Assembly (NCBI GenBank): GCA_045578165.1
Contig: JAZNJR010000003.1
Location: forward strand, 1,402 to 65,401
Direction: 5' to 3'
DNA length: 64,000 nucleotides
Source of the DNA: Acutalibacteraceae bacterium
Lineage (GTDB): Bacteria > Bacillota > Clostridia > Oscillospirales > Acutalibacteraceae
The notes under the pieces were generated by a model that saw only the letters and a program-made list of their open reading frames with translations, searched no databases and had not been told where the DNA came from. This document shows positions 2,330 to 13,590 of this stretch, piece after piece. The translations under genes and the position numbers were made by a program. Position 1 is the first letter of the stretch, and every line of letters starts with the position of its first letter.

Positions 2330-3035
2330 GTAAGGAATATTATATTTTTTTAGTAAAGTATAAAACGGTAAAAACTCTTGTAAACCCACATAAATAAAGG
2401 GCTTGCAAGAGTTTTTTTACAAAAAATTTAGCTAATGACGGCCGTTGACAACTGTTGAAAGCGATGTTGGGGGGATTTTAGGGGGGAATTATTAAAAAAT
2501 AGTTTTAAAAATCCGTTTGAGAGAAAAAACCTATCCAAAACGCAAAATCCATTGTTCTATCCCCATATTCATGGCCAAAAATCTGCATTTTAGTAGCATG
2601 ATTTAATAATCAGTATGTTACAACCCTAATTTTTTCTATATATTTAACACCAAATAAATCAAGAAATCTATATATTTTATTATTTTAGAAGATACTTTTT
2701 TTAGCTTTGGCAACATATATAATATGCGTGCGTGATTTTCAAATTTCAAAAATTTTTTTCTTTTTGCGAAATGACCTTGTTTGATTTCTATGTAATATAA
2801 TGTATATTCCAAAATGTATATTAGCACTTTATGGAGACCGTTTTCATTAATTTGAAGGTGGTCTTTCTTTTTTTTATGGGTTTATAGCCGCTACCGTGCG
2901 TTTGGGGCTGTATTTCCTTAAGGAAACAGTTGCAGAACGAGTTAACGCTGTTAGGCAATATAAAACCCTTCCTAAGAAAACGGTGTCATTTCTTTTGGGT
3001 TATGGCTTCTTTATTTTTACTTTTTTGATTATATT

Positions 3036-4034
3036 CTAAGCCATTGTTTCAAGCATTTTTATGCTGACTTCGTAATTAGTATGATTACCTTCGGTATAAT
3101 TTTTAAATTCATCATACATATATTCCGACATTCTATACATTTCATTACCGAAACTTCCCGCCACGTGAGGTGTTAAAATACAATTAGGTAACGTGTAAAA
3201 TGGATGTTCAGCTTCGGGTGGCTCGGGTAACGTAACGTCCAAAACGGCGGTAATATCAGGGCGGTTTGTAAGCGCGGTTACCAAATCGTTTTCTACAACC
3301 TGCGCTCCACGACCTGTATTTAAAAACGTAGCATAAGGCAACATTGAATTAAAATGTTCAAATTTTAGCATACCCTTAGTTTCTTTATTGTCGGCAAGAT
3401 GATTTGAAATTACTTGACATTCTTTAAAAATAGTGTCGAGCGATACTTTTTGAACGCCAAGTTCATTAGCTGTTTCATCGGGCAAGAACGGGTCAAAAAC
3501 TAAAACTTGTAAATTATATGCCTTTAGCATATTTATTACTAATTTTCCAATCATTCCTGCACCGATTATGCCAATCTTTACACCATAATTTCCCGGACAG
3601 GCTTTAGAAAATTCACGTGCTCTTTCGTAGTAACCATTTTTAGTAAGCATACTACTTTGATAAAAACCTTTGTTTGCCAAGATTATATTTGCTACGGTAT
3701 ATTCAGCAACGGGAATAGCATTTGCAGCCCAAGCCGAAAAAACCTTTACACCACATTCTAAAAACGGCTTTGCAAATTTTTTCACCGAGCCTGCGGCATA
3801 AAAAACACATTTTAAAGATGGAAAAATCCCCTTAATTTCTTCATTTGTGAAGGTTGGCATATCCCACGTTGAAAAAATATATTCGGTATCTTTAAAAATT
3901 AGCTTATTTTCTAAAACCTCTGCTTTGTTATAGCAAACACCATCAGATCCACTTTCTTCAAGGGTTTTAATAACGTTTTTACTGTAAACACGACTGAAGG
4001 TTTCTTTTTCGGAACAAATAAAAGCAATTTGCAT
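3036..4034 (-). CDS. D-isomer-specific 2-hydroxyacid dehydrogenase family protein (NAD-binding)
   Basis: 332 aa. Rossmann motif GIIGAGMIGKLV, then NTGRGAQVVENDL and ILTPHVAGS, typical of the family. Last gene of the minus-strand operon. Confidence 0.85.
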   Translation of the reverse strand: MQIAFICSEKETFSRVYSKNVIKTLEESGSDGVCYNKAEVLENKLIFKDTEYIFSTWDMPTFTNEEIKGIFPSLKCVFYAAGSVKKFAKPFLECGVKVFSAWAANAIPVAEYTVANIILANKGFYQSSMLTKNGYYERAREFSKACPGNYGVKIGIIGAGMIGKLVINMLKAYNLQVLVFDPFLPDETANELGVQKVSLDTIFKECQVISNHLADNKETKGMLKFEHFNSMLPYATFLNTGRGAQVVENDLVTALTNRPDITAVLDVTLPEPPEAEHPFYTLPNCILTPHVAGSFGNEMYRMSEYMYDEFKNYTEGNHTNYEVSIKMLETMA

Positions 4035-4043
4035 TTTTATCCC

Positions 4044-6344
4044 TCACAAATTATATTTTTTTATTGTAACGATTATTTTTTCATTTTTAATATTTTTGCC
4101 GTAAATCGCTATCTTTTTATATTGAGAATTATCTTTATGCGGTTTGCTTTGAATTTCTTTTCTTAACGGTTCGCAATCCATAATAAGAATTTCGGCATTC
4201 GCGTTTGTTGAAAGTGAAAATATTATGGCTTTGCCGTTTTGCGAAAGTTTAACAGTATTTTTATCAAGGACTGTTATTTGCGCTTTAGTATGGAAGAACG
4301 AATATATTTCAGAATCATCTTCCAGATCAAATTCATCACAAATACAAAATTCGGTACGGTTGTTTAAAAGAGCAAACTTACGTGTAACCTTTTTTGCATT
4401 ATCATAAGCAGTTGTTAAATCAACAACACAAAATGCAGAATCCGCTTTAGAATCAAACTCAATTATATCACAAACTGCGTTGGGGTTTTGGTCGGCAAGG
4501 CAATCACTATTATAGGGGTTAATTACAATAGTGTTATTACCCTCGGCACGTTTGCGGTAGTAGTTCCACCTGCCTGCATTTTTGCCGTATTCCCACATAC
4601 CGGGCATATCGTATTCCTCTATGCCGAGCTCAACAAACCAACGCTCACCCAACGTTTCAAACACAAAGGAGCCAAAATCAAGGTCCATATGACAGCTTTT
4701 AGCACCGCCCTTAAAACCAACGTAAATGCTGTTGCTATCGGTGTTAGAGCCCCTTAAATTACCAAGGTTGCCTAAAAAATAATCGGTTGGCGCTTTTTCT
4801 AAATAATTGTTACTCAGCATATCTTCTTTGAAGAAAATAAGGTCTTGGTAACTGTAAGTTTGCGGTTTGTTTTCTAAATAAAACTGTGCGTAGTCATAGC
4901 GGTTATAAAGCTGTGCCAACCACATAAGCGACGGCGCTACAACGTTTGTATCGGGCTTTGCATCATAATAATTAAAACATTCCCTGGTGTTGCCCGTCAT
5001 AGAAATTATATAATCACCCGTTGTATCAAGCCCTTTGACGTCGCGCATTCCAAAATCGGTGCCAAGCGCTTTTATAAGCGATGCCTCATAAATATAAAAA
5101 TTGCTTTGACCATAATTCCAATAATTAGGGCCTTCGGTATAAACGCCGCGAGGGGAGAGGGTTTTGAGATTAAGAAAAATCGCCTCAATTGTGAGATTAA
5201 TAATTTCGTTTGAAATTCCCTCACAACCTTCTTCATCACCAATTGCAAGTCCCAAAAGTCCCAAACCCGAAGAGGTAACGGTGTTATGGTTTGTGTCGTT
5301 ACACGCAAACTGCTTCTTTTGGCGCAACTGGTTAATCATTGCTTCCATACCATTTTTAAGCATACCGTTTCGCATTATGCGTTTTTCTTCTTCGGTCCAT
5401 TCATCATAAAGCCAGTCGTAAGCAATTGCAACAGGTCGCGCCATATCACCTACGTCAATATCGTGTGTGGGGTTCCAATCGGGGAAACGGCAAACAGATA
5501 AAACCTCTTCCCTTGCTCTATCTTTATATTTTTTGTCACCGCTTATTATATACGCAATAAGTAGATACGGTACGTTAAGTAACGCCTGTCTTGAAAGACG
5601 TCTGCCGTCGGATAATTCGTGGCAAATTACAGGTAAATTTAAAGCATTATCGGCTTTTTTAAGCGCGTCTTTACAAGCTTCATTCATAAAAGGTATGGTT
5701 TTAGTATAATGCTTTATGTTATTAAAATCTTCCCTTGTTGCTATAAGTCTTGGGTGTGCTTTATTTGGAAAACGTTCTTTTAAAAGTGATATTGCATCGT
5801 ATTTTTGCGGTTTAATTCCTTCAACGCGATAATCGGTATTTTCATCCACTTCAATAAATCTTTCTTTCACGTCGGGCAGGGGGTCATTTGTAACCCAAAC
5901 ACTGTCAAGCGCTATTTCGGTTTCCGTTGGGGGAAGGCAATAAAAGGGCTGCAAAAAACCATAACCGGTTATTTTTTCGTAGCCGTTTTTAGGGCTACCG
6001 TTTGTAACAATACCCTTAAAAAGTGGGAAGGTTAAAATCTTATGCCCCGACCACGAAACAGTAAAATGATATGTGTAACAGGTTTTGTTAATATCGGTGT
6101 CTTCGGTAAATGCTTGAAAGCAAATAACTGCGTGGGAGGGATTTTTTGAATATATGGAAAGCTGTAAATAATTATAACCTGTCCAACTATCGTTGGCTTT
6201 TTTTATAAACATTTTATTTTCTTTTATTGAATTATTAGAAAACAAAATGGCATTTTTACCTATAAATTTTTCATCGCTTATAATCGGAAAATTGTATTCA
6301 TCAGATTTAGCATTAGAAAAATCAAGAATGACTTTTTTATCCAT
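4044..6344 (-). CDS. heparinase II/III-like (polysaccharide-lyase fold) protein, no signal peptide, with an N-terminal ~170-aa extra domain
   Basis: 766 aa. NHNTVTSSGLGLLGLA and EGPNYWNYG in the helical toroid part, and CHMDLDFGSFVFE (H-x-D...F) in the C-terminal sheet domain, as in the heparinase II/III / alginate-lyase superfamily. The N-terminus MDKKVILDFSN is not a signal peptide. Confidence 0.7.
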   Translation of the reverse strand: MDKKVILDFSNAKSDEYNFPIISDEKFIGKNAILFSNNSIKENKMFIKKANDSWTGYNYLQLSIYSKNPSHAVICFQAFTEDTDINKTCYTYHFTVSWSGHKILTFPLFKGIVTNGSPKNGYEKITGYGFLQPFYCLPPTETEIALDSVWVTNDPLPDVKERFIEVDENTDYRVEGIKPQKYDAISLLKERFPNKAHPRLIATREDFNNIKHYTKTIPFMNEACKDALKKADNALNLPVICHELSDGRRLSRQALLNVPYLLIAYIISGDKKYKDRAREEVLSVCRFPDWNPTHDIDVGDMARPVAIAYDWLYDEWTEEEKRIMRNGMLKNGMEAMINQLRQKKQFACNDTNHNTVTSSGLGLLGLAIGDEEGCEGISNEIINLTIEAIFLNLKTLSPRGVYTEGPNYWNYGQSNFYIYEASLIKALGTDFGMRDVKGLDTTGDYIISMTGNTRECFNYYDAKPDTNVVAPSLMWLAQLYNRYDYAQFYLENKPQTYSYQDLIFFKEDMLSNNYLEKAPTDYFLGNLGNLRGSNTDSNSIYVGFKGGAKSCHMDLDFGSFVFETLGERWFVELGIEEYDMPGMWEYGKNAGRWNYYRKRAEGNNTIVINPYNSDCLADQNPNAVCDIIEFDSKADSAFCVVDLTTAYDNAKKVTRKFALLNNRTEFCICDEFDLEDDSEIYSFFHTKAQITVLDKNTVKLSQNGKAIIFSLSTNANAEILIMDCEPLRKEIQSKPHKDNSQYKKIAIYGKNIKNEKIIVTIKKYNL

Positions 6345-6359
6345 TTAAAAAACTCCCGT

Positions 6360-7103
6360 CTATTTTGCAATCAATTTTAGTGCATTGCTTTCATTTTTAA
6401 GGGTTTCAATTTTATCGTCGGGCATAAACTCCAAAAGCAATGTTTTATCGCTTTCAAAGCACTGTAAATATTCTTTCCAGCTATCAATATCATCGGCTAA
6501 CGGAAGACGATTATCACCCTTCCAATTAAAAACGTGAATATATTTAACATAGTCGCTTATATTTTTAGCATAGAAAATATTTTCTTCAAAGCTTAACAAC
6601 TGTTGTGGTTGCCAATACATTAAAAACGCCTTACTGTTTACTGCTTCCATAAGTTCTAAAGCCGATTTTTCGGTGTTTGTATAGGTGCCGTTATGGCATT
6701 CCATACAAACCGTAACTGCGTTTTCTTCAGCGATAGCGGCAACGTTTTTACATTCGTTAAAAAGTGCGGTTTTTTCATCCTCGCTATAATCCTGCGAATT
6801 TTTATTTCCACACCAAAGTCTTAAAACGTTAGTCCCTAAAATTTTAGCGGCGTATATATATTCTTGCAATTCTTCCTTAGGGGTTACACCAATTTTGAAA
6901 TACGTTCCGTAAGAACTGCATTTTATATTATATTCCTTTTGAAGATTTGCAAGGTTTTTAAGTTTCTCTATATCTTTCTGCGGTGCGTGAACGTCACTTC
7001 CCCATTCGATATATAAAAGACCTGCATTTTTCATTTCGGTCAATATTTCTTGCGGTGTGTTTTTTCTGAAAGAAATAGAACAAAGTCCCAAATTAAAGCT
7101 CAT
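6360..7103 (-). CDS. sugar phosphate isomerase/epimerase (xylose-isomerase-like TIM barrel) family protein
   Basis: 247 aa. The pattern IEWGSDVH ... LRLWCG ... CMECHNGTYT ... IHVFNW fits the AP-endonuclease-2 / xylose-isomerase-like barrel family. 16 nt upstream of the lyase-like gene. Confidence 0.7.
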   Translation of the reverse strand: MSFNLGLCSISFRKNTPQEILTEMKNAGLLYIEWGSDVHAPQKDIEKLKNLANLQKEYNIKCSSYGTYFKIGVTPKEELQEYIYAAKILGTNVLRLWCGNKNSQDYSEDEKTALFNECKNVAAIAEENAVTVCMECHNGTYTNTEKSALELMEAVNSKAFLMYWQPQQLLSFEENIFYAKNISDYVKYIHVFNWKGDNRLPLADDIDSWKEYLQCFESDKTLLLEFMPDDKIETLKNESNALKLIAK

Positions 7104-7261
7104 TTATATCACCCATTTCAATATGGAGTTTATCGTTGTTGATTTTATGCACACGACCAAGACCGCGCTTTTGCGATATATTCGTGGATTTGCTCAAGAG
7201 TATATGCCGACAGCGATTTTTCCATTATAACAAGATAAATTTTTTATTTTTCTTGTTATCT

Positions 7262-9160
7262 TTAAAAAATATTTTTGTTTTCTCTATACTGTTTCCACAC
7301 GTTTTCAAAAAAATCGACGTTTTGGGGTATTGGTCTTACGTTTCGCCAAGAGGATTCAAAACCGTTTTTACAAAGTACGGTTTCTTGAACTTTATTGCGG
7401 GTATTTCCGTTTTCTTCGTTAAAACGGAACGTTTCTTCAAGCCCGTCACAAAGCTTACCGTTTTTATCAAAATAAAGCGCCGAACCTCTTGTATCACCAA
7501 CGGTTTGGGAATAATTGATCATAGCGTTTAAAACTGCGCTTTGCGTGTAAAGTATATCCTTTAGCTTATAGTATTTATAAACCTCAGAATTATCCTTAAC
7601 ACCCACCTTGTAAAGCTGTGAAATTTCAAGCTTAATTTCTTCCAAAGCTTTGCACATGGCATCAACGTTTCTAATAGCAGCCGCACAATCGCTCATTCTT
7701 CTTTGCGCGTTTTCTATATAACCTTCTACATTGTTGGTATTAGCTATAACGTTAAAAATTTCGGCTTTGGCATTGTTTTTGGCATTAGTATAAATTTTTT
7801 CAAAAATACCGTCATCAATCGCAGTATTAGCATTTTGTGATATATACTGTGCCGCACGAAGACCACCTACTTGACCCGCGTTAAGTGCCGAGCCACCCGG
7901 TCTTGTAATACCGTGCGTGCCCGCACATTCACCCGCACAAAACAAACCCTTAATGTTTGTTTGCCACCACATATTAACCGCAATACCACCGTTGTTATGC
8001 TGAGCGCAAAGTGCAATTTCGAGGTATTCCTTAGTAAGGTCAACACCCTTGCTTTTATATAATTCAATAGCAGGGGTATTCATTTTAAACAGTCTTTCTA
8101 TTGGTGTGCCAAATAAAGCATTCGCGTTATTTAAATATTCAAAAGCTTCCTTAGACAATTTACTATACTCGATATTTATCATATTAAACGGATTTTTCGT
8201 AAAGTCAAGGTAAACCTTGCGTTTTTTTAAAACACACTCGCGATAAACGAGTAAATCGATTATCGACGACCCCGTAAGCACCTTTTTAGAATCAAACGGC
8301 CATTGATAACCTTTTAAAAATACCATTGAAAGCGCTTCGTATTTGTCGCTAAAATAATCGGCTAAAAATTCGTGTTCATTTTTGTTTTCGTCAATAGACA
8401 CAAAGCGGGGGAGCACCTGCATATAAGTGCCCGAAACGTTCCAACGCGGGTTTATAGATGCCAAACCGTACTGCCATTCGGTTAAATTTTGTGCTTTAGC
8501 ACCCGCTAAAAGTGCCAAGCTTGTAGTACCTGTGTGACATTTTGGAAATACACTGTCGGCGTAAATTCCCGCAGGGCCACCCGTACACATTACAATATCC
8601 GCACACTTAAATGCAACAAATTCGCCGCTTTGCTTTTCTAAACATAAAAGCCCGCAAACGCCGTTATCGTGCTTTAGTATTTCAACGGCAAGATATCCGC
8701 TAAAGGTTGGAATATTTAAATTTTCGGCATTCTTTTGCAATGCCTCGGTCATAAATTTAGAGGTTAACGGTCCTGCCGAGGTTGCGCGTGCATAGGGGTC
8801 GTGGTCGGTTTTATAGCCGACGTATTCACCGTATCTATTAACGGGAAAATCAACACCTAATTCGCACAAATTCATAAACGACCTTACCGATAAAGCCGCC
8901 TCGCAAAGCGCGTTATCACCGTCGACACTACCGCCCGCAAAAAGATTTTCAGCCATTTTATAAATACTGTCGGGGCTGTCACCGCCAAGACCCAACTTGT
9001 AGTAGGTTTGCTTGTCACTGCCTGTATTTCGCGAGGTGCCGCAGTTGGTGGCTTCGGTAACGATTGCAACGTTTTTATTAAATTGTTTTAAGCGGCAAGC
9101 GGCATTGTAGCCCGCAGCGCCCGTACCTATTACTATAGTATCAAATTTAAAAAGCTTCAT
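7262..9160 (-). CDS. FAD-binding oxidoreductase of the fumarate reductase / succinate dehydrogenase / L-aspartate oxidase flavoprotein superfamily
   Basis: 632 aa. N-terminal dinucleotide fold DTIVIGTGAAGYNAA, plus GLFCAGECAGTHGITRPGGSALNAGQVGG, which resembles the conserved FAD-domain segment of Frd/Sdh flavoproteins. Its ATG overlaps the SDR stop (TAATG). Confidence 0.75.
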   Translation of the reverse strand: MKLFKFDTIVIGTGAAGYNAACRLKQFNKNVAIVTEATNCGTSRNTGSDKQTYYKLGLGGDSPDSIYKMAENLFAGGSVDGDNALCEAALSVRSFMNLCELGVDFPVNRYGEYVGYKTDHDPYARATSAGPLTSKFMTEALQKNAENLNIPTFSGYLAVEILKHDNGVCGLLCLEKQSGEFVAFKCADIVMCTGGPAGIYADSVFPKCHTGTTSLALLAGAKAQNLTEWQYGLASINPRWNVSGTYMQVLPRFVSIDENKNEHEFLADYFSDKYEALSMVFLKGYQWPFDSKKVLTGSSIIDLLVYRECVLKKRKVYLDFTKNPFNMINIEYSKLSKEAFEYLNNANALFGTPIERLFKMNTPAIELYKSKGVDLTKEYLEIALCAQHNNGGIAVNMWWQTNIKGLFCAGECAGTHGITRPGGSALNAGQVGGLRAAQYISQNANTAIDDGIFEKIYTNAKNNAKAEIFNVIANTNNVEGYIENAQRRMSDCAAAIRNVDAMCKALEEIKLEISQLYKVGVKDNSEVYKYYKLKDILYTQSAVLNAMINYSQTVGDTRGSALYFDKNGKLCDGLEETFRFNEENGNTRNKVQETVLCKNGFESSWRNVRPIPQNVDFFENVWKQYRENKNIF

Positions 9161-9885
9161 TATAATCTCCTAATATGGAAACCGCCGTCAACGTCAATCG
9201 ACTGACCCGTAACGTATGGTAAGCTACCGTTACAAAGTGTCCAAACAGCACTTGCAATATCTTCGGGTTTGCCCCAACGTTTGATTGGAAGTAAACCATC
9301 GTTAATAAGTGCGTCATACTTTTCTTTTACCTTGTCGGTCATACCTGTTGCAATTATGCCGGGGCGTATTTCGTTTACCATAATGCCATATTCGGCAAGG
9401 CGGTCGGCAAAAAGGGTAGTTATCATAGTAACACCCGCTTTACTGATACAATATTCACCTCGACTAACCGAGCTTGTATAACCCGACATTGAAGAAATAT
9501 TTACAATACTACCCGACTTTTCTTTTTTCATAATATTTGCGACAGCTTGAGTTAAAAACAAAGTGCCCTTTGTGTTAATATTCATAACAAAGTCGTATGA
9601 TTCTTCGGTCATTTCAAGAATATCGTTTCTAACCATTGGGGCAACACCTGCAACGTTTACAAGTATATCAATCCTGCCATATTTATCCATTGCGGCTTTA
9701 ATATAGCTTTCGCGTGATTCTTTACTGCTTAAATCACCTTTAAAATATGTAAATTCACCCTCTAAAGCATTAGGCATTTCGGGTAAAACATCCATACCAA
9801 CAACAGCAACGTTGTTTTCAAGTAAAAGCTTTGCAGTAGCAAAGCCAATACCACCCGCTACTCCTGTTACTAACGCTACTTTCAT
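9160..9885 (-). CDS. short-chain dehydrogenase/reductase (SDR)
   Basis: 241 aa. TGVAGGIGFA (TGxxxGxG), NISS, YCISKAG (YxxxK). Its start overlaps the upstream stop (TAATG). Confidence 0.9.
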   Translation of the reverse strand: MKVALVTGVAGGIGFATAKLLLENNVAVVGMDVLPEMPNALEGEFTYFKGDLSSKESRESYIKAAMDKYGRIDILVNVAGVAPMVRNDILEMTEESYDFVMNINTKGTLFLTQAVANIMKKEKSGSIVNISSMSGYTSSVSRGEYCISKAGVTMITTLFADRLAEYGIMVNEIRPGIIATGMTDKVKEKYDALINDGLLPIKRWGKPEDIASAVWTLCNGSLPYVTGQSIDVDGGFHIRRL

Positions 9886-11219
9886 TATTTAAAACCTCCG
9901 CATTGTTTTTCGTAAATGGGCATATATATTTCTTTATCTCTTATAACGCAACCGGGTGTACCGCCTGCACGCATAATTTCTGTACACTTAGAGCAACAAA
10001 GGCAAATTTTATTTTTGTCCATAAAGCCGTTTTTAATAATATCATTTGCAAAATTGGGGTATGCAAAAATTGTTCTGCCAAAGCCCGCAAAATCAAATTT
10101 ATTGTTTTCAATGTATGCCGCTGCAACGTTTGGTGCCGCAACCCCTAAATATGAAATTGCCGAGCATATTATAGCCATTTCGGGGTTTAATTCTTTAAGC
10201 TTTGCGGTGGCATTTAAAATTCGTTCAACCCCTTTGAGCGGATGCTCGGGGGCAGTGTAGCCACCTTTCGCATAAGGACGGTTTACATGCGGATTAAAAT
10301 AAGGGTTACCCATAGTGATATTCAGTAACCTTACACCGTATTTGTAAAGTTCTTTTATTAACCAATCGGGCTCGGTTTCATCAAAATCTATGCTTTCGTC
10401 TTTTTTTACACCAAAGCCGTAGGGGTAGGGAAAACCGTCGTAAATATTTAAACGCGAGGACACAATAAAATCCTTTGAACAGCTTTCAATCGAACCTTTT
10501 ATACTTTCGCGCAAAAGTCTTGTTCGGTTTTCCAAGCTTCCGCCATATTTACCGTCGCGCATAAAGGCAGACAAAAGCTCTGAATTTAAGTATCTATGGC
10601 AGCACTTAATATCTACACCGTCAAATCCTGCTTTTTCGGCAAGTATAGCACCATTAATTAACGAATCGCGAACTCTATCAAGATATTCATCGGTTACTAT
10701 TTTTCTTTTATCTATGGGGTTATCCTTTTCAAAAATTGGATTATTATATGCAATAAGCGGTGCGGGAATGCCGTTCGGCTTTGAATATCTGCCCGAATGT
10801 GTTGCCTGCATAATAACAATTGGCTCGTACCCGTTTTCTTTTAGTGCCTTTTCTTTTATACTCTCAACCTGTTTTTTAAAATCGTCAAGGTTATTATTGT
10901 TAATGTGAAGCTGATGTGGGTTTGCTTTACCTTCCTCCATTACTGCGGTGGCTTCAAACCATATAAGCCCTGCACCACCCGTAGCAAGTCGTTCATAGCG
11001 CCTTTTTGTAAGTGTATCGGGCGAGCCGAATTTAGTACCGTCGCACCCCTCCATAGCTTGACATATGAGGCGGTTGGGCACTTTTTTGTTACCAATAGTT
11101 AGTGGCTTTTTTAAAACATCTATATCATTAATAAATGGTAAAGCTGTGCCTGTTTCTAAATTTTCCTTTAAAAATGCCTCTTTATTAAAATAAACCGAAT
11201 TAGCCATATAACAACCCAT
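9885..11219 (-). CDS. Old-Yellow-Enzyme-like NADH:flavin oxidoreductase with a C-terminal 4Fe-4S motif, lacking the NAD(P)H/FAD C-terminal domain
   Basis: 444 aa. OYE barrel signatures (CQAMEGCDG, ATHSGRYSKP, GFDGVDIKCCHRYL). C-terminal CLCCSKCTEIMRAGGTPGC matches the Cx2Cx2Cx11C cluster of the 2,4-dienoyl-CoA reductase / enoate reductase / BaiH-type family. The start may instead be the ATG at 11207. Confidence 0.75.
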   Translation of the reverse strand: MGCYMANSVYFNKEAFLKENLETGTALPFINDIDVLKKPLTIGNKKVPNRLICQAMEGCDGTKFGSPDTLTKRRYERLATGGAGLIWFEATAVMEEGKANPHQLHINNNNLDDFKKQVESIKEKALKENGYEPIVIMQATHSGRYSKPNGIPAPLIAYNNPIFEKDNPIDKRKIVTDEYLDRVRDSLINGAILAEKAGFDGVDIKCCHRYLNSELLSAFMRDGKYGGSLENRTRLLRESIKGSIESCSKDFIVSSRLNIYDGFPYPYGFGVKKDESIDFDETEPDWLIKELYKYGVRLLNITMGNPYFNPHVNRPYAKGGYTAPEHPLKGVERILNATAKLKELNPEMAIICSAISYLGVAAPNVAAAYIENNKFDFAGFGRTIFAYPNFANDIIKNGFMDKNKICLCCSKCTEIMRAGGTPGCVIRDKEIYMPIYEKQCGGFK

Positions 11220-11274
11220 TTTCTTTATTATTTTACATTTATTGTAAATGAAATTTAAAACAATATATATATCT

Positions 11275-11303
11275 ATCTTGCTGAAAAATATGTAAATCTT
11301 GCT
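11275..11303. promoter_or_regulatory. direct repeat ATCTTGCT x2 with 21-bp period in the divergent promoter region (candidate AraC-type operator)
   Basis: ATCTTGCT at 11275-11282 and 11296-11303, lying between the operon start (11219, minus) and the AraC start (11359, plus). A TATAAT lies at about 11320. Confidence 0.3.
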
Positions 11304-11358
11304 TTTTTGTAAAAATATATTATAATAATTACAGTATTGTTTTAAAGGGGAATTGTTT

Positions 11359-12153
11359 ATGACACCAATTCTTGCGGCAAGGTATTCTGTATCAAATTCT
11401 ATACCGAGAAAATCACCGCATTATCACGATTCGCATCAGTTATTATATATAGCCGAGGGCAGTGCTGAAATTACAATAGATGGTAAGCAGTATCTTGCCG
11501 AAAGCGGTGCGCTTATTGTAATAAGCCGACTTGAAATGCACTCTATAACGGTAAAAAGCAATACTTATAAACGGTATGCGCTTCGTATAAATCCGGAATA
11601 TACCCCTAACCATAATATCGGTTATCTTTATTCGGTGTTTGTAAACCGACCCGCGGGCTTTAGCCACGTTATATATGCGAACGAAAAGCTTGAAAGCATT
11701 ATTTCAAACATTGTGAATGAATATAATAATTGCGAAATGCTGTCAGAAGAAATGCAAAGCTTGCTTTTAGAGGAATTGTTAATTTCTTTGTATCGCAGCA
11801 GTCCAAATTCGTTTGCCGCAAATGACCGTAAAAACGAAATAGTAGACGATATTTGCAAAAAAATAAAAAATAATTTAAATGCAAAAATTTCGTTGGCTAT
11901 GCTTGCGAAAAGCGCGCATTTAAACGAATATTATCTTTCACATATTTTTAAATCGGTTACGGGTTATTCGATTATGGGGTATGTGATGTCATTAAGAATA
12001 GCCACCGCTAAAAGAATGTTAACAAAAACCGAAATGTCGATTAGTGAAATAATTGAATATTGCGGATTTTCAGATGGTAGTAATTTTAGCCGTACTTTTC
12101 GCAAAACAACAGGCGTTTCACCTAGCGAATTCCGAAAAAATTTTAAAAAATAA
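11359..12153 (+). CDS. AraC family transcriptional regulator (cupin sensor + HTH)
   Basis: C-terminal AraC HTH (LAKSAHLNEYYLSHIFKSVTGYS ... IEYCGFSDGSNFSRTFRKTTGVSPSEFR) and an N-terminal cupin-like domain. The start is moved from the track's TTG (11353) to the ATG at 11359, which sits 8 nt after AAAGGGG. Confidence 0.85.
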   Translation: MTPILAARYSVSNSIPRKSPHYHDSHQLLYIAEGSAEITIDGKQYLAESGALIVISRLEMHSITVKSNTYKRYALRINPEYTPNHNIGYLYSVFVNRPAGFSHVIYANEKLESIISNIVNEYNNCEMLSEEMQSLLLEELLISLYRSSPNSFAANDRKNEIVDDICKKIKNNLNAKISLAMLAKSAHLNEYYLSHIFKSVTGYSIMGYVMSLRIATAKRMLTKTEMSISEIIEYCGFSDGSNFSRTFRKTTGVSPSEFRKNFKK

Positions 12154-12470
12154 TTTTAACTTATCTCTAAATATAAGTGATAAACGTTTATCATAAATTT
12201 TAAACCATATAACAACAAAAATTTCAGCGTGCCAATAAAGAAGTTATAACCTTTGAGTTTTGACGATTAAATTATTAAGCAGAGTGGCATGTCACACATA
12301 AAATAGTGTGGCATGCCATTAGTGTAATAGAATTGTAAATATTAATTAATCATATTTTGTAATGAGTAACTGGCATAGGCCCAGTCCTCGTTTTTGTTTT
12401 TCATGATGCCGGAATCATCATAAACAATACTAACAATTTTTTTGATAGTCTTGCTTTCAGTATTAGCAGT

Positions 12471-12797
12471 GACATTAATTACACAGAAAGAAACTGGAAT
12501 ACCACTTTAAGAACTATGGACATATTAAACGGTGCAAAGGTGTACCGCAATAAAGTGGTAGAATCCACAATACCTTATAAGGATAAGTTAACACCTTATA
12601 ATTTGCGTCATACATACTGCACTATGCTGAATGATTGCAACATAAGTGAATACTTCAAGAAGCGTCTTATGGGACATACATTATCCGATTCTATAACGGA
12701 TAGTGTTTACACCCACTCCTCTGAGGGAAAAATAATAAGAGCGGCAAAGCCGTTCTTAACTCACTTTCAAAAACTATTCGCCCAAGCGTTGAAATAA
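12471..12797 (+). pseudogene. tyrosine recombinase (integrase) C-terminal fragment
   Basis: Only about 100 aa. LTPYNLRHTYCTML ... RLMGHTLSDSITDSVYTH carries the conserved R, H and catalytic Y region of the tyrosine recombinase catalytic domain. The N-terminal ~250 aa are absent. The frame is open from 12366 but upstream residues look unrelated. Confidence 0.7.
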
Positions 12798-12905
12798 CAT
12801 AAAACGACCTTGTTATCCTTAATTGGATTTCAAGGTCGCTGTTGTTATAGTTTTAAACTTCAAGGGGGAATCAGGGGGGAAATACTAATTTTCAGGCAAA
12901 AAAAT

Positions 12906-12934
12906 AAACAGCAGGTCTTGAAAACCTACTGTTT
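12906..12934 (-). terminator. hairpin plus T-run following the X-Gln element (minus-strand sense)
   Basis: AAACAGCAGGT / ACCTACTGTTT stem (one mismatch), with an A-run at 12895-12905 on the plus strand, which is a T-run after the hairpin on the minus strand. Confidence 0.4.
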
Positions 12935-12938
12935 ATGC

Positions 12939-13066
12939 TGGCTGGGGAATAGGGATTATTCAGGCGCAACGCGCCTTCCGCCTCGCTTAGCTCGTTGCCC
13001 ACGTCGGCAAAAACAGTTCCCCGAACTGTTTTCTTCCGCTTCGCTCCCTCCTTGTTCGAATCCCTT
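12939..13066 (-). other. X-Gln: ~128-nt structured element ending in a 19-nt copy of the tRNA-Gln 3' end (miniature integrative-element relic or ncRNA)
   Basis: In minus-strand sense it reads AGGGATTCGAAC...two hairpins...AATCCCTATTCCCCAGCCA. 12939-12957 is identical to 13122-13140 of tRNA-Gln. Homologous to 13428-13551. Confidence 0.45.
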
Positions 13067-13086
13067 TTAAGTTTTACATAAAAAAT

Positions 13087-13121
13087 AAAAGCACCGACTT
13101 AATTAGTCAGTGCTTCTTTTA
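13087..13121 (-). terminator. rho-independent terminator of tRNA-Gln
   Basis: In tRNA sense: CCA-TAAAAGAA-GCACTGAC-TAATTAA-GTCGGTGC-TTTTATTTTTT. Confidence 0.7.
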
Positions 13122-13195
13122 TGGCTGGGGAATAGGGATTCGAACCCCAACAAACAGAGTCAGAGTCTGTCGTGCTACCGTTACACAATTCCCCA
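13122..13195 (-). tRNA. tRNA-Gln: tRNA-Gln (anticodon CTG), CCA encoded
   Basis: Hand-folded. Acceptor TGGGGAA/TTCCCCA, D stem GTGT/GCAC, anticodon stem ACAGA/TCTGT with loop CTCTGAC (anticodon CTG), T arm TGGGG-TTCGAAT-CCCTA, discriminator G, CCA. Confidence 0.9.
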
Positions 13196-13213
13196 AAATT
13201 TGATAACAAAGTT

Positions 13214-13241
13214 ATTATAACCGATTTTTTGGCTTTGTCAA
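13214..13241 (-). promoter_or_regulatory. consensus sigma-A promoter for tRNA-Gln
   Basis: On the minus strand: TTGACA (13241-13236), 16-nt spacer, TATAAT (13219-13214). The tRNA 5' end lies about 18 nt downstream of the -10 box. Confidence 0.55.
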
Positions 13242-13261
13242 GCCGATTTTTTAAAATAGTC

Positions 13262-13290
13262 TTGAATTTTTCGGTAATTTATGTTACCAT
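13262..13290 (+). promoter_or_regulatory. candidate promoter for tRNA-Ala
   Basis: TTGAAT (13262-13267), 17-nt spacer, TACCAT (13285-13290). The tRNA starts 13 nt later. Confidence 0.35.
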
Positions 13291-13303
13291 AAACACGTTG
13301 TAC

Positions 13304-13379
13304 GGGGGCGTAGCTCAGCTGGGAGAGCGTTTGACTGGCAGTCAAAAGGTCATGGGTTCGATCCCCACCGTCTCCACCA
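13304..13379 (+). tRNA. tRNA-Ala: tRNA-Ala (anticodon GGC), CCA encoded
   Basis: Hand-folded, 76 nt. Acceptor GGGGGCG/CGTCTCC with the G3:U70 alanine identity pair, D arm GCTC-AGCTGGGA-GAGC, anticodon stem TTTGA/TCAAA with loop CTGGCAG, T arm ATGGG-TTCGATC-CCCAC (A49:C65 mismatch), ACCA. Confidence 0.88.
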
Positions 13380-13380
13380 T

Positions 13381-13423
13381 ACACACAAACTTCACATTTA
13401 AGTGTTGTTTGTGTGTTTTTTTA
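13381..13423 (+). terminator. rho-independent terminator of tRNA-Ala
   Basis: ACACACAAAC (13381-13390) pairs with GTTTGTGTGT (13407-13416), followed by TTTTTTT. Confidence 0.7.
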
Positions 13424-13427
13424 TTTT

Positions 13428-13551
13428 GTGGTGGGGATCGAACAAGCCGTTTAAAACAACAGTCCGGTGGACTGTTGTTTAGGCGCGGCAACGAGCGAAG
13501 TGAGGCGATAGGTGCGGGTAGCACCGAGACAAATCCCCACCGTCTCCACCA
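13428..13551 (+). other. X-Ala: ~124-nt structured element ending in a 19-nt copy of the tRNA-Ala 3' end (homologue of X-Gln)
   Basis: GTGGTGGGGATCGAAC...hairpin 13454-13480...GGCAACGAGCGAAGTGAGGCG (13487-13507)...hairpin 13511-13525...ATCCCCACCGTCTCCACCA. 13533-13551 is identical to 13361-13379. Confidence 0.45.
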
Positions 13552-13556
13552 AAAAA

Positions 13557-13590
13557 GCACCGACTAATTAAGTCGGTGCTTTTTGTTTTT
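13557..13590. terminator. bidirectional terminator (after X-Ala on plus, after the CE4 gene on minus)
   Basis: GCACCGAC-TAATTAA-GTCGGTGC flanked by an A-run (13551-13556) and a T-run (13580-13590). The CE4 stop codon is at 13589-13591. Confidence 0.65.

Follow-up and report, generated by a model that had tools for sequence, protein, structure and literature searches.

The two hairpin-rich units found downstream of tRNA-Gln and tRNA-Ala in the window (the whole stretch of 64 kb analysed in this study) are members of a large and apparently undescribed family in gut Clostridia. We refer to this unit as X. A search with the 21-nt box shared by the two units gave at least 118 loci, nearly all in gut genomes of Acutalibacteraceae/Oscillospirales, and 24 further loci were found with the box in metagenomes. 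We tentatively believe, with slightly less than even confidence, that X represents a very small, gene-less and non-autonomous integrative element, which targets the T-loop of stand-alone tRNA genes and depends on an enzyme encoded at an unlinked place.

The two units of the window and the neighbouring island

ARAGORN and Rfam called tRNA-Gln(CTG) at 13122-13195 on the minus strand and tRNA-Ala(GGC) at 13304-13379 on the plus strand, with promoter-like sites at 13241-13214(-) and 13229-13257(+), respectively. X-Gln (12939-13070, minus strand) belongs to subtype A1, and X-Ala (13427-13551, plus strand) belongs to subtype A2, in which the GGAGGGAGC...GCGGAAG segment is missing. The last 19 nt of each tRNA, positions 58-76, are repeated exactly in its unit. 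The Gln copies are at 12939-12957 and 13122-13140 with a spacing of 183, and the Ala copies are at 13361-13379 and 13533-13551 with a spacing of 172 (0 copies expected from dinucleotide shuffles). The break between G57 and A58 and the two periods were exactly those described in the earlier note.

The closing stem had the claimed length, namely 7 bp in X-Gln (AGGGATT paired with AATCCCT) and 9 bp in X-Ala (GGTGGGGAT paired with ATCCCCACC), and the 5' arm of X-Ala is a perfect inverted 14-nt copy of tRNA positions 53-66. X-Gln consists of the 5' arm (13059-13065), the invariant CGAAC (13054-13058), hairpin P3 (13010-13032), box P4 (12979-12999), hairpin P5 (12962-12976) and the 19-nt copy, and the same parts of X-Ala are at 13430-13438, 13439-13443, 13454-13480, 13487-13507, 13511-13525 and 13533-13551. 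Both internal hairpins were found in both units. The box occurs only twice in the 64 kb, on the minus strand in X-Gln and on the plus strand in X-Ala (expected 0.01). A covariance model built from 88 relatives recovered X-Gln with 128.6 bits and X-Ala with 112.2 bits, compared with 13.7 bits for the next match in the window.

The terminator scan detected terminator-like hairpins 3' of tRNA-Gln (T1, 13087-13117, minus strand, between tRNA-Gln and X-Gln), X-Gln (T2, 12904-12936, minus strand) and X-Ala (T4, 13552-13584, plus strand, 84-87% identity to T1). Each unit is followed by a terminator hairpin of its own, as had been proposed. T1 lies inside the repeat unit in the close relative L063. 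Between tRNA-Ala and X-Ala, a hairpin with a T-run (T3, 13381-13416, plus strand) was seen in the sequence and is too G+C-poor for the terminator scan.

A third copy of the 3' part of tRNA-Gln, which the earlier note had missed, is present at 2286-2329. Together with a terminator, T1', this displaced copy of positions 32-76 occupies 2240-2329 on the minus strand. It is repeated directly, over about 90 nt, at 13079-13168 and marks the far border of a 10.8-kb island beside X-Gln. The order at this border is tRNA 3' half, T1' and host DNA, and it represents an internal site without X. The C-terminal remnant of a tyrosine recombinase (93 aa, 12516-12797, plus strand, convergent with X-Gln) is part of the island and is not demonstrably linked to X. 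For both the island and the element at L039, the site is in the anticodon loop (44-45-nt repeats) and not at 57|58. The circovirus-type Rep element at L039 was considered as the autonomous partner of X and rejected, because the repeat at its borders (about 45 nt) begins in the anticodon loop and the element does not include X.

Linkage to tRNA genes and fold of the core

The earlier note asked whether copies always follow a tRNA gene and always carry its positions 58-76. Nearly every copy does follow a tRNA, and an upstream tRNA on the same strand was present in the fetched DNA for 98 of the 118 full-length copies. In 80 of these 98 copies (82%), the exact match to the tRNA 3' end extends over 19 nt, and in none is it longer. 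The tRNA types clearly involved are nine, namely three Arg, two Ser, Gln, Ala, Val and Gly. The gap between tRNA and X has a median of 54 nt (interquartile range 51-57). The 5' arm of X corresponds to tRNA positions 53-67 in reverse complement, the 5' side of the junction is always TTCG (positions 54-57), and the ends of X are [N5]GGGATTCGAAC and ACAAAATCCC[N5]. The exact match, its fixed limit of 19 nt and the tight gap count for an integrative element. At L045, the tRNA gene has no encoded CCA and its X copy likewise has none, so the 19-mer was probably copied from the gene and not from the mature tRNA, which also counts for an integrative element. A retro-type origin is therefore unlikely, and no reverse transcriptase was seen. 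The distal 19-mer shows 1 difference from the tRNA in 285 nt, whereas the adjoining duplicated terminators differ by 14.4%, which could mean host-level selection for function and not recent integration.

The core of about 100 nt is conserved in more than 100 species-level genomes, whereas the flanking spacers and terminators are not. Interiors are 77% identical at tRNAs of one type and 73.5% identical between types, and subtypes A1 and A2 are each found at most tRNA types. Other core types (B, C and D) follow this design as well, and their break is likewise inside the T-loop. The occurrence of the same core at different tRNAs and the T-loop break of types B, C and D also count for an integrative element. 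The earlier note had argued that two independent decays down to the same core were unlikely; this was right in spirit and has been superseded, because the core is that of a conserved family.

With the families of Rfam 15, among them tRNA, tmRNA, Y-RNA-like RNAs and ribozymes, only the two tRNAs of the window reached the gathering threshold, nothing besides terminator-driven noise was found over X at E values up to 10, and relatives of types A-D gave no matches. ARAGORN called no tRNA or tmRNA in X. No description of the X family was found in the literature, including a search with the box sequence as a text string; the earlier note had not recognised the units as a described RNA or element family either. 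The Gut-1 RNA motif (RF01706) physically adjoins X at the same tRNA loci. It is an orphan structured motif of gut Clostridia with unknown function (PMC2864571). X is also an orphan structured motif of gut Clostridia, but Gut-1 has another sequence and another structure, with arrays of short hairpins between repeated words, and has no tRNA-derived part.

In the interior of X, 97.1% of cells were paired compared with 86.8% in shuffles, and 260 double-change cells were observed compared with 57; these values were reached by none of the 500 shuffles. The differences between the hairpin stems of the two units, which had been noticed to differ and stay paired, are compensatory and strongly non-random. 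G-U pairs exceeded A-C at about 57:17, so the tRNA-sense strand is the folding strand. In 36 of the 88 copies, 4 or more tRNA-specific bases are paired in stem P1 in addition to the 6 universal ones, and at L032 18 of 19 arm bases are paired, some of them not tRNA-derived. GNNA and GAA loops and conserved junctions are present in X, and hairpin tips are expanded at L058 and L022. A small ORF or Shine-Dalgarno-led peptide was rejected because the short and the long forms do not share it, and a kink-turn in the box did not fit on inspection.

The single-strand fold counts for an integrative element. However, the fold, the G-U bias, the GNNA/GAA loops and the tip expansions are equally typical of a functional RNA and to this extent count against it. 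As the main rival, we consider it possible, though rather unlikely, that X is a structured non-coding RNA, a companion of the tRNA, produced by terminator read-through or from an unrecognised promoter. The alternative raised in the earlier note, a structured RNA or a DNA site that bears a tRNA 3' end, may also apply to X. In the companion RNA, the 5' arm would be antisense to the T-arm of the tRNA, and the 3' end would mimic tRNA positions 58-76; the targets might be the cognate tRNA, tRNA fragments, enzymes or toxins that bind tRNA ends, or the tRNA gene, and the arrays and paralogues would result from ordinary duplication and gene conversion. This explanation agrees with the strong strand-specific covariation, the conserved junctions, the GNNA/GAA loops, the variable hairpin tips, the pairing of P1 that follows the tRNA, the far better conservation of the 19-mer than of neighbouring duplicated sequence, and the tight spacing (54 +/- 4 nt). 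In addition, the folding strand is the transcribed sense strand, and every unit closes with a terminator. On the other hand, no promoter was found ahead of X by promoter scan, strong intrinsic terminators lie directly upstream, and no Rfam family matches. The lack of a promoter before X and the strong terminators upstream count for an integrative element.

Arrays, turnover and the search for a partner enzyme

Units of 172-210 bp contain no ORF. In tandem arrays (L038, L110, L123 and L069), the terminator after the tRNA is the same as that after the internal copies, and the last one differs. This is the pattern predicted for a unit beginning at position 58. An RNA gene that carries a terminator of its own and was inserted 3' of the tRNA terminator was rejected on the basis of this pattern, which also weighs against X being a non-coding RNA. 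Many arrays finish in a truncated 5' part of X and not at a clean host junction.

The divergent Gln/Ala locus has orthologues in other genomes. X is present at both tRNAs in the window; in L063, tRNA-Gln has two X and tRNA-Ala has none, L047 carries a single X, at Ala, and L044 has a different core type at Gln. This turnover counts for an integrative element, and the presence or absence of units and the swap of core type at one orthologous locus count against the RNA explanation. A size series with a common distal end runs from empty units of 0.18 kb to units of 0.6-1.2 kb (L080, L037, L011 and L108) and 3.8 kb (L076), with small cargo genes inside. The cargo genes sit between the tRNA and X at some loci, and their proteins are small and have no recombinase-family match (a few were checked against Pfam). 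The size series with cargo counts for an integrative element; the position of the cargo and the frequent truncated and chimeric copies of X speak against the RNA explanation.

In about 136 loci and in the 64-kb window, X was not linked to any gene for a recombinase, transposase or reverse transcriptase. Tyrosine-recombinase remnants near X or its tRNA were seen only in the window, L057 and L052 among these loci, and an ORF with a recombinase regex match at L013:2695-3871 was a spurious reverse-frame ORF. In none of the approximately 136 loci did we see an intact element in which an integrase gene separates the tRNA from the X core and X would be the ordinary attP arm, as the earlier note had considered. 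At L014 (contig JAGAKF010000057.1), which may be one large element, the analysis covered the end with X. All three conditions under which the earlier note would have been refuted came out in its favour: further copies are numerous, the hairpin differences are compensatory and no such intact element was seen. A blastn search in distant mode with X-Ala plus flanks gave no match in phage and plasmid collections. Six box matches in IMG/VR, on GC-rich contigs without tRNAs, are unrelated to X because the covariance model fits only a 19-nt box, and the single match in another viral scan, made with the 5' junction word, was a chance one inside a coding region.

The earlier note proposed to look for strains that lack the unit. 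L063 and L047 lack X at one of the two tRNAs; no excised circle was found, nor a clean empty site in a near-identical strain. No sister strains were on record by exact-protein look-up of the flanking genes, and a metagenome scan with the Gln/Ala intergenic word matched no near-identical strain. The lack of a linked recombinase, an excised circle and a clean empty site counts against an integrative element, as do the arrays that often end in truncated X and the type A core, which has no second duplex arm across the unpaired patch.

Proposed mechanism and comparison with known systems

If X is an integrative element, its unit of about 175-210 bp would start with a tRNA 58-76 copy and an intrinsic terminator, followed by a short spacer, then the arm that complements positions 53-67 and finally the core of about 100 nt. 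Joining would take place at G57|A58 of the T-loop, so that the 19-mer and terminator of the element complete the tRNA gene, and the original 3' end would be displaced and stay fused to the core; this fusion would be the unit described in the earlier note. Repeated events at the same 19-mer would give tandem arrays and trap DNA between copies. We suppose that X integrates and excises through a single-stranded DNA intermediate, in which the core, as a folded tRNA-sense strand, would serve as the recombination module. The closing stem P1 would rebuild the duplex of tRNA positions 58-67 beside the unpaired patch 54-57, which recalls the attC sites of integrons and the folded attP of the CTX phage. 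The recombining enzyme would be encoded elsewhere and act in trans. The earlier suggestion that the units are miniature integrative elements moved in trans is supported in part. It fits the 57|58 boundary, the arrays, the presence or absence at orthologous loci and the cargo-enclosing copies, but neither an excised form, a clean empty site nor a recombinase was found to support it.

A more speculative extension, to which we give low confidence, is that the X core is the specificity module of a new recombination system. It could be an integron-like cassette platform of Firmicutes, with the tRNA T-loop as entry site and the folded single strand as cassette site, or a nucleic-acid-guided recombinase, in which the paired 5' arm and 3' 19-mer would re-program the guide for each tRNA. 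In both versions, a host- or element-encoded enzyme would recognise the folded 100-nt core and join DNA precisely at G57|A58. We know of no precedent for folded-DNA recombination at a tRNA gene and of no reports of integrons from Firmicutes; both points count against X as an integrative element.

Like X, integron attC sites are structured, are about 60-140 nt long and fold as one strand; they occur in tandem, sometimes with small promoterless genes between them, and CALIN arrays have no integrase. X likewise has a one-strand fold with compensatory change, tandem copies, small promoterless genes between some copies and no adjacent recombinase. The structured single-stranded DNA of attC has been discussed (PMC5737381). 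Unlike attC, X has no R''/R' consensus (RYYYAAC / GTTRRRY) in an R''-L''...L'-R' arrangement, and its sequence is highly conserved, not its structure alone. The counterpart of attI would be the tRNA T-loop, the units carry a tRNA 3' end and terminator, and the hosts are Firmicutes; no intI-like gene adjoins the arrays, which are headed by a tRNA gene instead of intI/attI. CTX-phage-type elements (IMEX) integrate as folded single-stranded DNA via the host XerCD. They resemble X in that the folded strand, unpaired in a central patch, recreates the target duplex and the element has no integrase gene, but the target of X is the tRNA T-loop and not dif, the T-arm is unlike dif, and X encodes nothing. 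Both attC and CTX sites have the second duplex arm that type A lacks.

CIMEs, to which the earlier note compared the units, are decayed ICEs or IMEs that keep attL and attR and have no integration or transfer genes (PMC5704250). X shares with them the direct repeats of the target gene 3' end as borders (80 of 98 copies and both window units), the absence of integration and transfer genes inside, the tandem accretions at tRNA genes and an enzyme presumably supplied in trans. However, X units are 10-100 times smaller, and they have a single-strand-folding core and a segment that is antisense to the T-arm. In about 136 loci, we found no ICE or IME that has the X core and the same att arms and could be the parent, so an origin of X by decay is not supported.

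In tRNA-linked islands and tycheposon arrays, older elements are pushed outward as new ones integrate at the same tRNA, the units are separated by partial tRNA copies and degenerate remnants are common, as with X; those elements differ in that they are kilobases long, carry tyrosine recombinases and have partial tRNAs without a conserved structured core (10.1101/2020.12.28.424599). MITEs and IS200/IS605-derived palindrome elements are, like X, small, gene-less, hairpin-rich and multi-copy, with the enzyme in trans. The terminal inverted repeats of MITEs are constant and lie between short direct target-site duplications. The terminal inverted parts of X vary with the target instead, and its 19-nt direct repeat does not flank the inverted arms like a target-site duplication but consists of one arm and the acceptor strand. 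Strand specificity is typical of IS200/IS605 elements, whose insertion takes place 3' of a fixed tetranucleotide; here this would be TTCG (positions 54-57). Their non-autonomous forms have subterminal hairpins that are similar at the two ends, and neither inverted nor direct repeats. X has the TTCG junction and a one-strand fold, but its left-end hairpins (terminators) are not conserved and are unrelated to P5, and it has the 19-nt repeat.

It is very unlikely, in our opinion, that X gives rise to a guide-type RNA used by an RNA-directed recombinase or transposase whose gene lies elsewhere, comparable to the bridge RNAs of IS110/IS1111 or to a scaffold-plus-3'-guide omega RNA. The 5' arm and the 3' 19-mer would be its programmable segments and could pair with both strands of the tRNA gene at positions 53-76. 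The conserved scaffold of about 100 nt, the 3' 19 nt identical to the target with a complementary 5' segment, the re-equipment of one scaffold for at least 9 tRNA types and the fixed position relative to the target count for such a guide. However, no IS110, TnpB, IscB or Cas gene adjoins any copy or lies in the 64-kb window, and the promoter is absent. The arms of X are mutually complementary and cover the same target segment, which bridge-RNA guides do not, and a guide of positions 58-76 would match the filled site too and target itself.

Least probable of all is that X units are passive, functionless scars, the leftover att arms of decayed integrase-bearing islands or prophages: tRNA 3' ends are classic integration sites, an island with an integrase remnant adjoins X-Gln, similar remnants occur at L057 and L052, and tRNA-linked islands are known to contain many partial tRNA copies (10.1101/2020.12.28.424599), but the core outlasts its flanks in more than 100 species-level genomes, its hairpins are maintained by compensatory changes, which would be unnecessary for double-stranded arm sites, 82% of the 19-mers have remained exact, integrase traces are limited to about 3 of 136 loci, and neither the window island nor the L039 element uses 57|58.

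X is an unannotated repeat and will confuse predictions of tRNA islands, att sites and ncRNAs in rumen and human-gut MAGs. The covarying 100-nt core must have a recogniser, which would be a recombinase that works on folded DNA or else a partner that binds RNA. The identity of this partner could reveal a new recombination chemistry with programmable, tRNA-matched specificity, or alternatively point to a new class of tRNA-end-mimicking RNA. If X is mobile, it would be among the smallest site-specific integrative elements known, and gene-less cassettes could cap one tRNA gene repeatedly, each restoring the 3' end and terminator. This would be a cheap route to hypervariable regions beside tRNA genes in abundant gut Clostridia.

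Two X units at the divergent tRNA pair and the extent of the family

In the window, tRNA-Gln(CTG) (13122-13195, minus strand) and tRNA-Ala(GGC) (13304-13379, plus strand) are divergent, and each has a promoter-like site rated good. Downstream of each come a hairpin with a T-run and, beyond it, a second unit, X (X-Gln, 12939-13070, minus strand; X-Ala, 13427-13551, plus strand), of about 125 nt, whose 3' end is a 19-mer copying tRNA positions 58-76 and whose start, the 5' arm, is an inverted T-arm. The features that the earlier note had read from this region were all recovered. The exact 19-nt repeats were spaced by 183 (Gln) and 172 bp (Ala), with zero expected by chance, and the 21-nt box occurred only twice in 64 kb. 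The closing stems of X-Gln and X-Ala were 7 and 9 bp, respectively, and the Ala 5' arm was an inverted copy of tRNA positions 53-66, perfect over 14 nt; both internal hairpins were present in both units, and a terminator followed each. A covariance model built from 88 copies scored these two units at 128.6 and 112.2 bits and found no others in the window, where the next best score was 13.7. No promoter for X was found there; a strong terminator lies upstream instead. The terminators at 13087-13118 (after tRNA-Gln) and 13553-13584 (after X-Ala) are palindromes that are 84-87% identical, with another at 2243-2285, and the palindromes AAAAGCACCGAC..GTCGGTGCTTTT form an inverted repeat around the tRNA pair.

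Copies beyond the window, for which the earlier note proposed a search, proved to be many. At least 118 stretches matched the box in a scan of one genome per species, and a profile search gave at least 118 full-length copies; when the box was lengthened slightly to make it more specific, it matched a further 24 loci in a metagenome collection, in samples from humans, camels and the rumen. All the box matches listed, except six chance ones, were from gut or rumen Clostridia labelled Acutalibacteraceae, Oscillospiraceae, Ruminococcaceae or 'Eubacterium'. The consensus starts with five nucleotides and GGGATT-CGAAC, followed by AAGGAGGGAGC, an optional hairpin P2, GCGGAAG and hairpin P3; continues with GCCGACGTG, the box P4 (GGCAACGAGCGAAGCGAGGCG), ATAG and hairpin P5; and ends with GGGACAAA, AATCCC, five nucleotides, the acceptor 3' strand, NCCA and a terminator. 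X-Gln belongs to the common subtype A1, and X-Ala to subtype A2, without the segment around P2. No family in Rfam 15 matched X, even at permissive thresholds; nothing similar was found in phage and plasmid collections; X was absent from IMG/VR, where matches were due to chance or the box alone; and no description of the family was found in the literature. The X family is real, widespread and apparently undescribed. The 21-nt box GGCAACGAGCRAAGCGAGGCG, in most cases with GCAG after it, turns up again in non-coding, GC-rich parts of viral IMG/VR contigs (L001-L006) as the sole part matching the X model, and TGTGGATAA repeats (DnaA-box-like) lie near it in L001 and L005.

RNAalifold on 88 sequences gave the closing stem P1 (5' arm plus 19-mer), P3 with an extension, an invariant mini-hairpin in the box and P5, with compensatory changes in 18 of 30 pairs. 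The hairpin covariation, which the earlier note had wanted examined statistically, is non-random. Paired cells on this structure, double-change cells and the covariation score were 97.1%, 260 and 0.322, respectively, against 86.8%, 57 and 0.129 after shuffling, and none of 500 shuffles attained any of the observed values. When the partners were slid by 1-3 columns, pairing fell to 38-48%. The ratio of G-U pairs to A-C mismatches was about 57:17 (29 G-U in two P3 helix columns, 48:83 and 53:79), which indicates that the tRNA-sense strand is the folding strand. Hairpin tips accept insertions of about 60-100 nt (loci L022 and L058), and loops are mainly GAA or GNNA. The covariation shows a single-stranded fold that would be compatible with RNA or DNA alike, an ambiguity also raised by Weinberg and colleagues for attC-like motifs (PMC5737381).

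Link to the tRNA gene and turnover of the units

A same-strand tRNA was present upstream in the fetched DNA for 98 of the 118 copies listed; the rest were mostly at a locus edge or after a partial tRNA missed by ARAGORN. The gap between the tRNA end and the X start (median 54 nt, interquartile range 51-57) contains one terminator hairpin and a short AT-rich spacer. Because the longest exact match between the 3' ends of X and tRNA was 19 nt in 80 of the 98 copies listed, and never longer, the break always falls at G57|A58. Full copies occur at nine tRNA types (Arg-ACG, Arg-CCG, Arg-TCT, Ser-GGA, Ser-CGA, Gln-CTG, Ala-GGC, Val-GAC and Gly-TCC), and one end-truncated copy lies 3' of tRNA-Met. At locus L045, both the tRNA gene and its X copy are without CCA, which indicates that the source of the copy was the gene and not the mature tRNA. 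The 5' arm comprises the invariant CGAAC, complementary to positions 53-57, and a stretch of 7-12 nt that is complementary to position 58 onward and varies with the tRNA. At least four tRNA-specific bases are paired beyond the universal six in 36 of 88 copies, and at locus L032 18 of 19 arm bases are paired, some of them not tRNA-derived.

Tandem arrays of two or three units are common, with a period of 175-210 bp. In the arrays L038, L110, L123 and L069, the terminator after the tRNA is that found after the internal copy, and the last one is different, so the repeating unit starts at position 58 and runs through 19-mer, terminator, spacer, arm and core. The window, L063, L044 and L047 contain orthologous copies of the divergent Gln/Ala locus that vary in X content. 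The window has one A1 unit at tRNA-Gln and one A2 unit at tRNA-Ala; L063 has two units and a truncated third at tRNA-Gln and none at tRNA-Ala; L047 has none at tRNA-Gln and one A1 unit at tRNA-Ala; and L044 has a different core (type B) at tRNA-Gln and one A1 unit at tRNA-Ala. L016, covering the Ala side only, has an A2 unit and then a type B unit. The interior tracks tRNA type weakly: identity was 77% within and 73.5% between types, 38 of 85 nearest neighbours shared the tRNA (20% by chance), and A1 and A2 were both found at most tRNA types. This indicates that cores moved or were swapped between tRNA loci, with ends that fit the local tRNA. In some units, cargo of 0.6-1.2 kb (L080, L037, L011, L108) or 3.8 kb (L076) lies between tRNA and core and consists of small genes, one encoding a 23S_rRNA_IVP four-helix-bundle protein.

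Copies are often truncated, internally deleted or chimeric. In L107 (1369-1496 and upstream), tRNA-Ser(GGA) runs into the X core at a TTCGA common to both, a fusion that destroys the tRNA; the X at L138:6972-7100 is an orphan, having a Ser-type arm, an Arg-TCT-type 19-mer and no tRNA within 7 kb upstream; and in L087, X downstream of tRNA-Ser is without its middle.

Neighbouring islands, other cores and hairpin arrays

The 3' part of tRNA-Gln occurs a third time at 2286-2329, as 44 nt that extend from position 32, in the anticodon loop, to CCA. Together with a copy (T1', 2240-2285) of T1, the terminator between tRNA-Gln and X-Gln, it makes up a direct repeat of about 90 nt (2240-2329) with 13079-13168. 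The 10.8-kb stretch between the repeats (2330-13078) is an island of ordinary type, inserted into the tRNA-Gln anticodon loop. It carries sugar metabolism, AraC regulator, heparinase II/III-like, 2-hydroxyacid dehydrogenase, TIM-barrel, FAD-oxidoreductase, SDR and old-yellow-enzyme-like genes and a truncated tyrosine integrase (12516-12797). The same arrangement is seen in an Oscillospiraceae MAG, where a 2.6-kb element in the anticodon loop of tRNA-Arg(ACG) (L039:204-2880) has genes for an S24 (LexA/cI-like) repressor and for a circovirus-type Rep (PF02407) with an SF3 helicase, and none for an integrase; beyond the displaced tRNA 3' half come a terminator and then an X unit. Since the crossover site of these two elements differs from that of X, the integrase remnant next to X-Gln is best interpreted as a neighbour of the unit rather than its partner. 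The left repeat copy serves as an internal site without X, with the tRNA 3' half, T1' and then host sequence, and its homology to the X-bearing side stops a few bases past the T-run. In the simplest history that we infer, the island came first, with T2, the terminator after X-Gln, as its own terminator, and a T1-bearing Gln-specific unit (cf. L063) later entered the rebuilt tRNA-Gln.

At least three further core types (B, C and D) share the design of type A: they begin with an inverted T-arm, close with 15-23 nt copied from the tRNA 3' end and break inside the T-loop. Different types can occur in one array. Downstream of tRNA-Ser(GCT), L038, L074 and L117 have units that end in the tRNA 3' end without a type-A core, which suggests more core families than these four.

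Short-hairpin arrays with repeated words (GTATATCATCA / TGATGATATAC and ACTTCATT / AATGAAGT, for example) were seen directly after the tRNA or X terminator, as at L108:124-193 (minus strand) and similarly in L011, L014, L022, L023, L037, L056, L069, L095, L116, L118, L047, L076 and L084. The L108 array scores above the threshold of Rfam Gut-1 (RF01706). Promoter-like sequences and small genes lie downstream of these arrays, so Gut-1 may act as a leader or a DNA-level element of the tRNA-linked cassettes. The conserved word TTGTTGCYATTTTRAGCTGTAAACAC, an A-run and a terminator end each small gene cassette adjoining these tRNAs (L011, L014, L019, L022, L037, L056, L069, L108); the cassettes can be directly consecutive (L014, L022, L056) or terminated by an X unit.

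Readings of X

We favour the reading that X is a non-autonomous integrative mini-element that targets the T-loop and has a core acting as a folded single strand. This explains why the boundary is fixed at 57|58, why the copy derives from the gene, why each unit contains a terminator and why X has no promoter, as well as the array pattern, the series of cargo sizes and the turnover seen at orthologous loci. In the folded strand, P1 would rebuild the duplex of positions 58-67; the next four bases are unlike, ACAA on the 3' side and CGAA (complement of positions 57-54) on the 5' side, and this mismatch would leave an unpaired patch exactly at the crossover. The attC and CTX attP sites are folded sites, which such a fold would resemble. 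This reading has serious weaknesses. No recombinase was linked to X: a profile started from the single clear XerC/D-like protein among the loci gave fragments only, near L057 and L052; the recombinase content of the window is a 93-aa remnant; neither a recombination intermediate nor a strain-level empty site was found; and type A is without a second duplex arm.

The main rival is that X is a structured RNA that arises by read-through and matches its tRNA, and one result points in this direction. At 15 loci, the terminators after the tRNA and after X are homologous and 14.4% different, and the adjoining 19-mers differ at 1 of 285 positions (Fisher p ~1e-14). Either the distal copy is under purifying selection, or the units integrated recently and brought with them an orthologous terminator from a related species. 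We place the RNA reading second because the array terminator pattern, the cargo between tRNA and core and the missing promoter argue against it. That X is a guide RNA or a passive scar is much less likely.

In behaviour, X units are most alike to CIMEs (PMC5704250) and to tRNA-linked island accretion arrays (10.1101/2020.12.28.424599); in form, they are most alike to attC sites. Unlike CIMEs, X has no parental ICE or IME that could be found; unlike attC sites and integrons, it has neither the attC consensus nor intI; and it is without constant terminal repeats and flanking duplication. We see a small but genuine probability that the underlying recombination system of X is of a new kind. Since X departs from each known system in its defining features, we classed it as a variant of the att-only integrative element.
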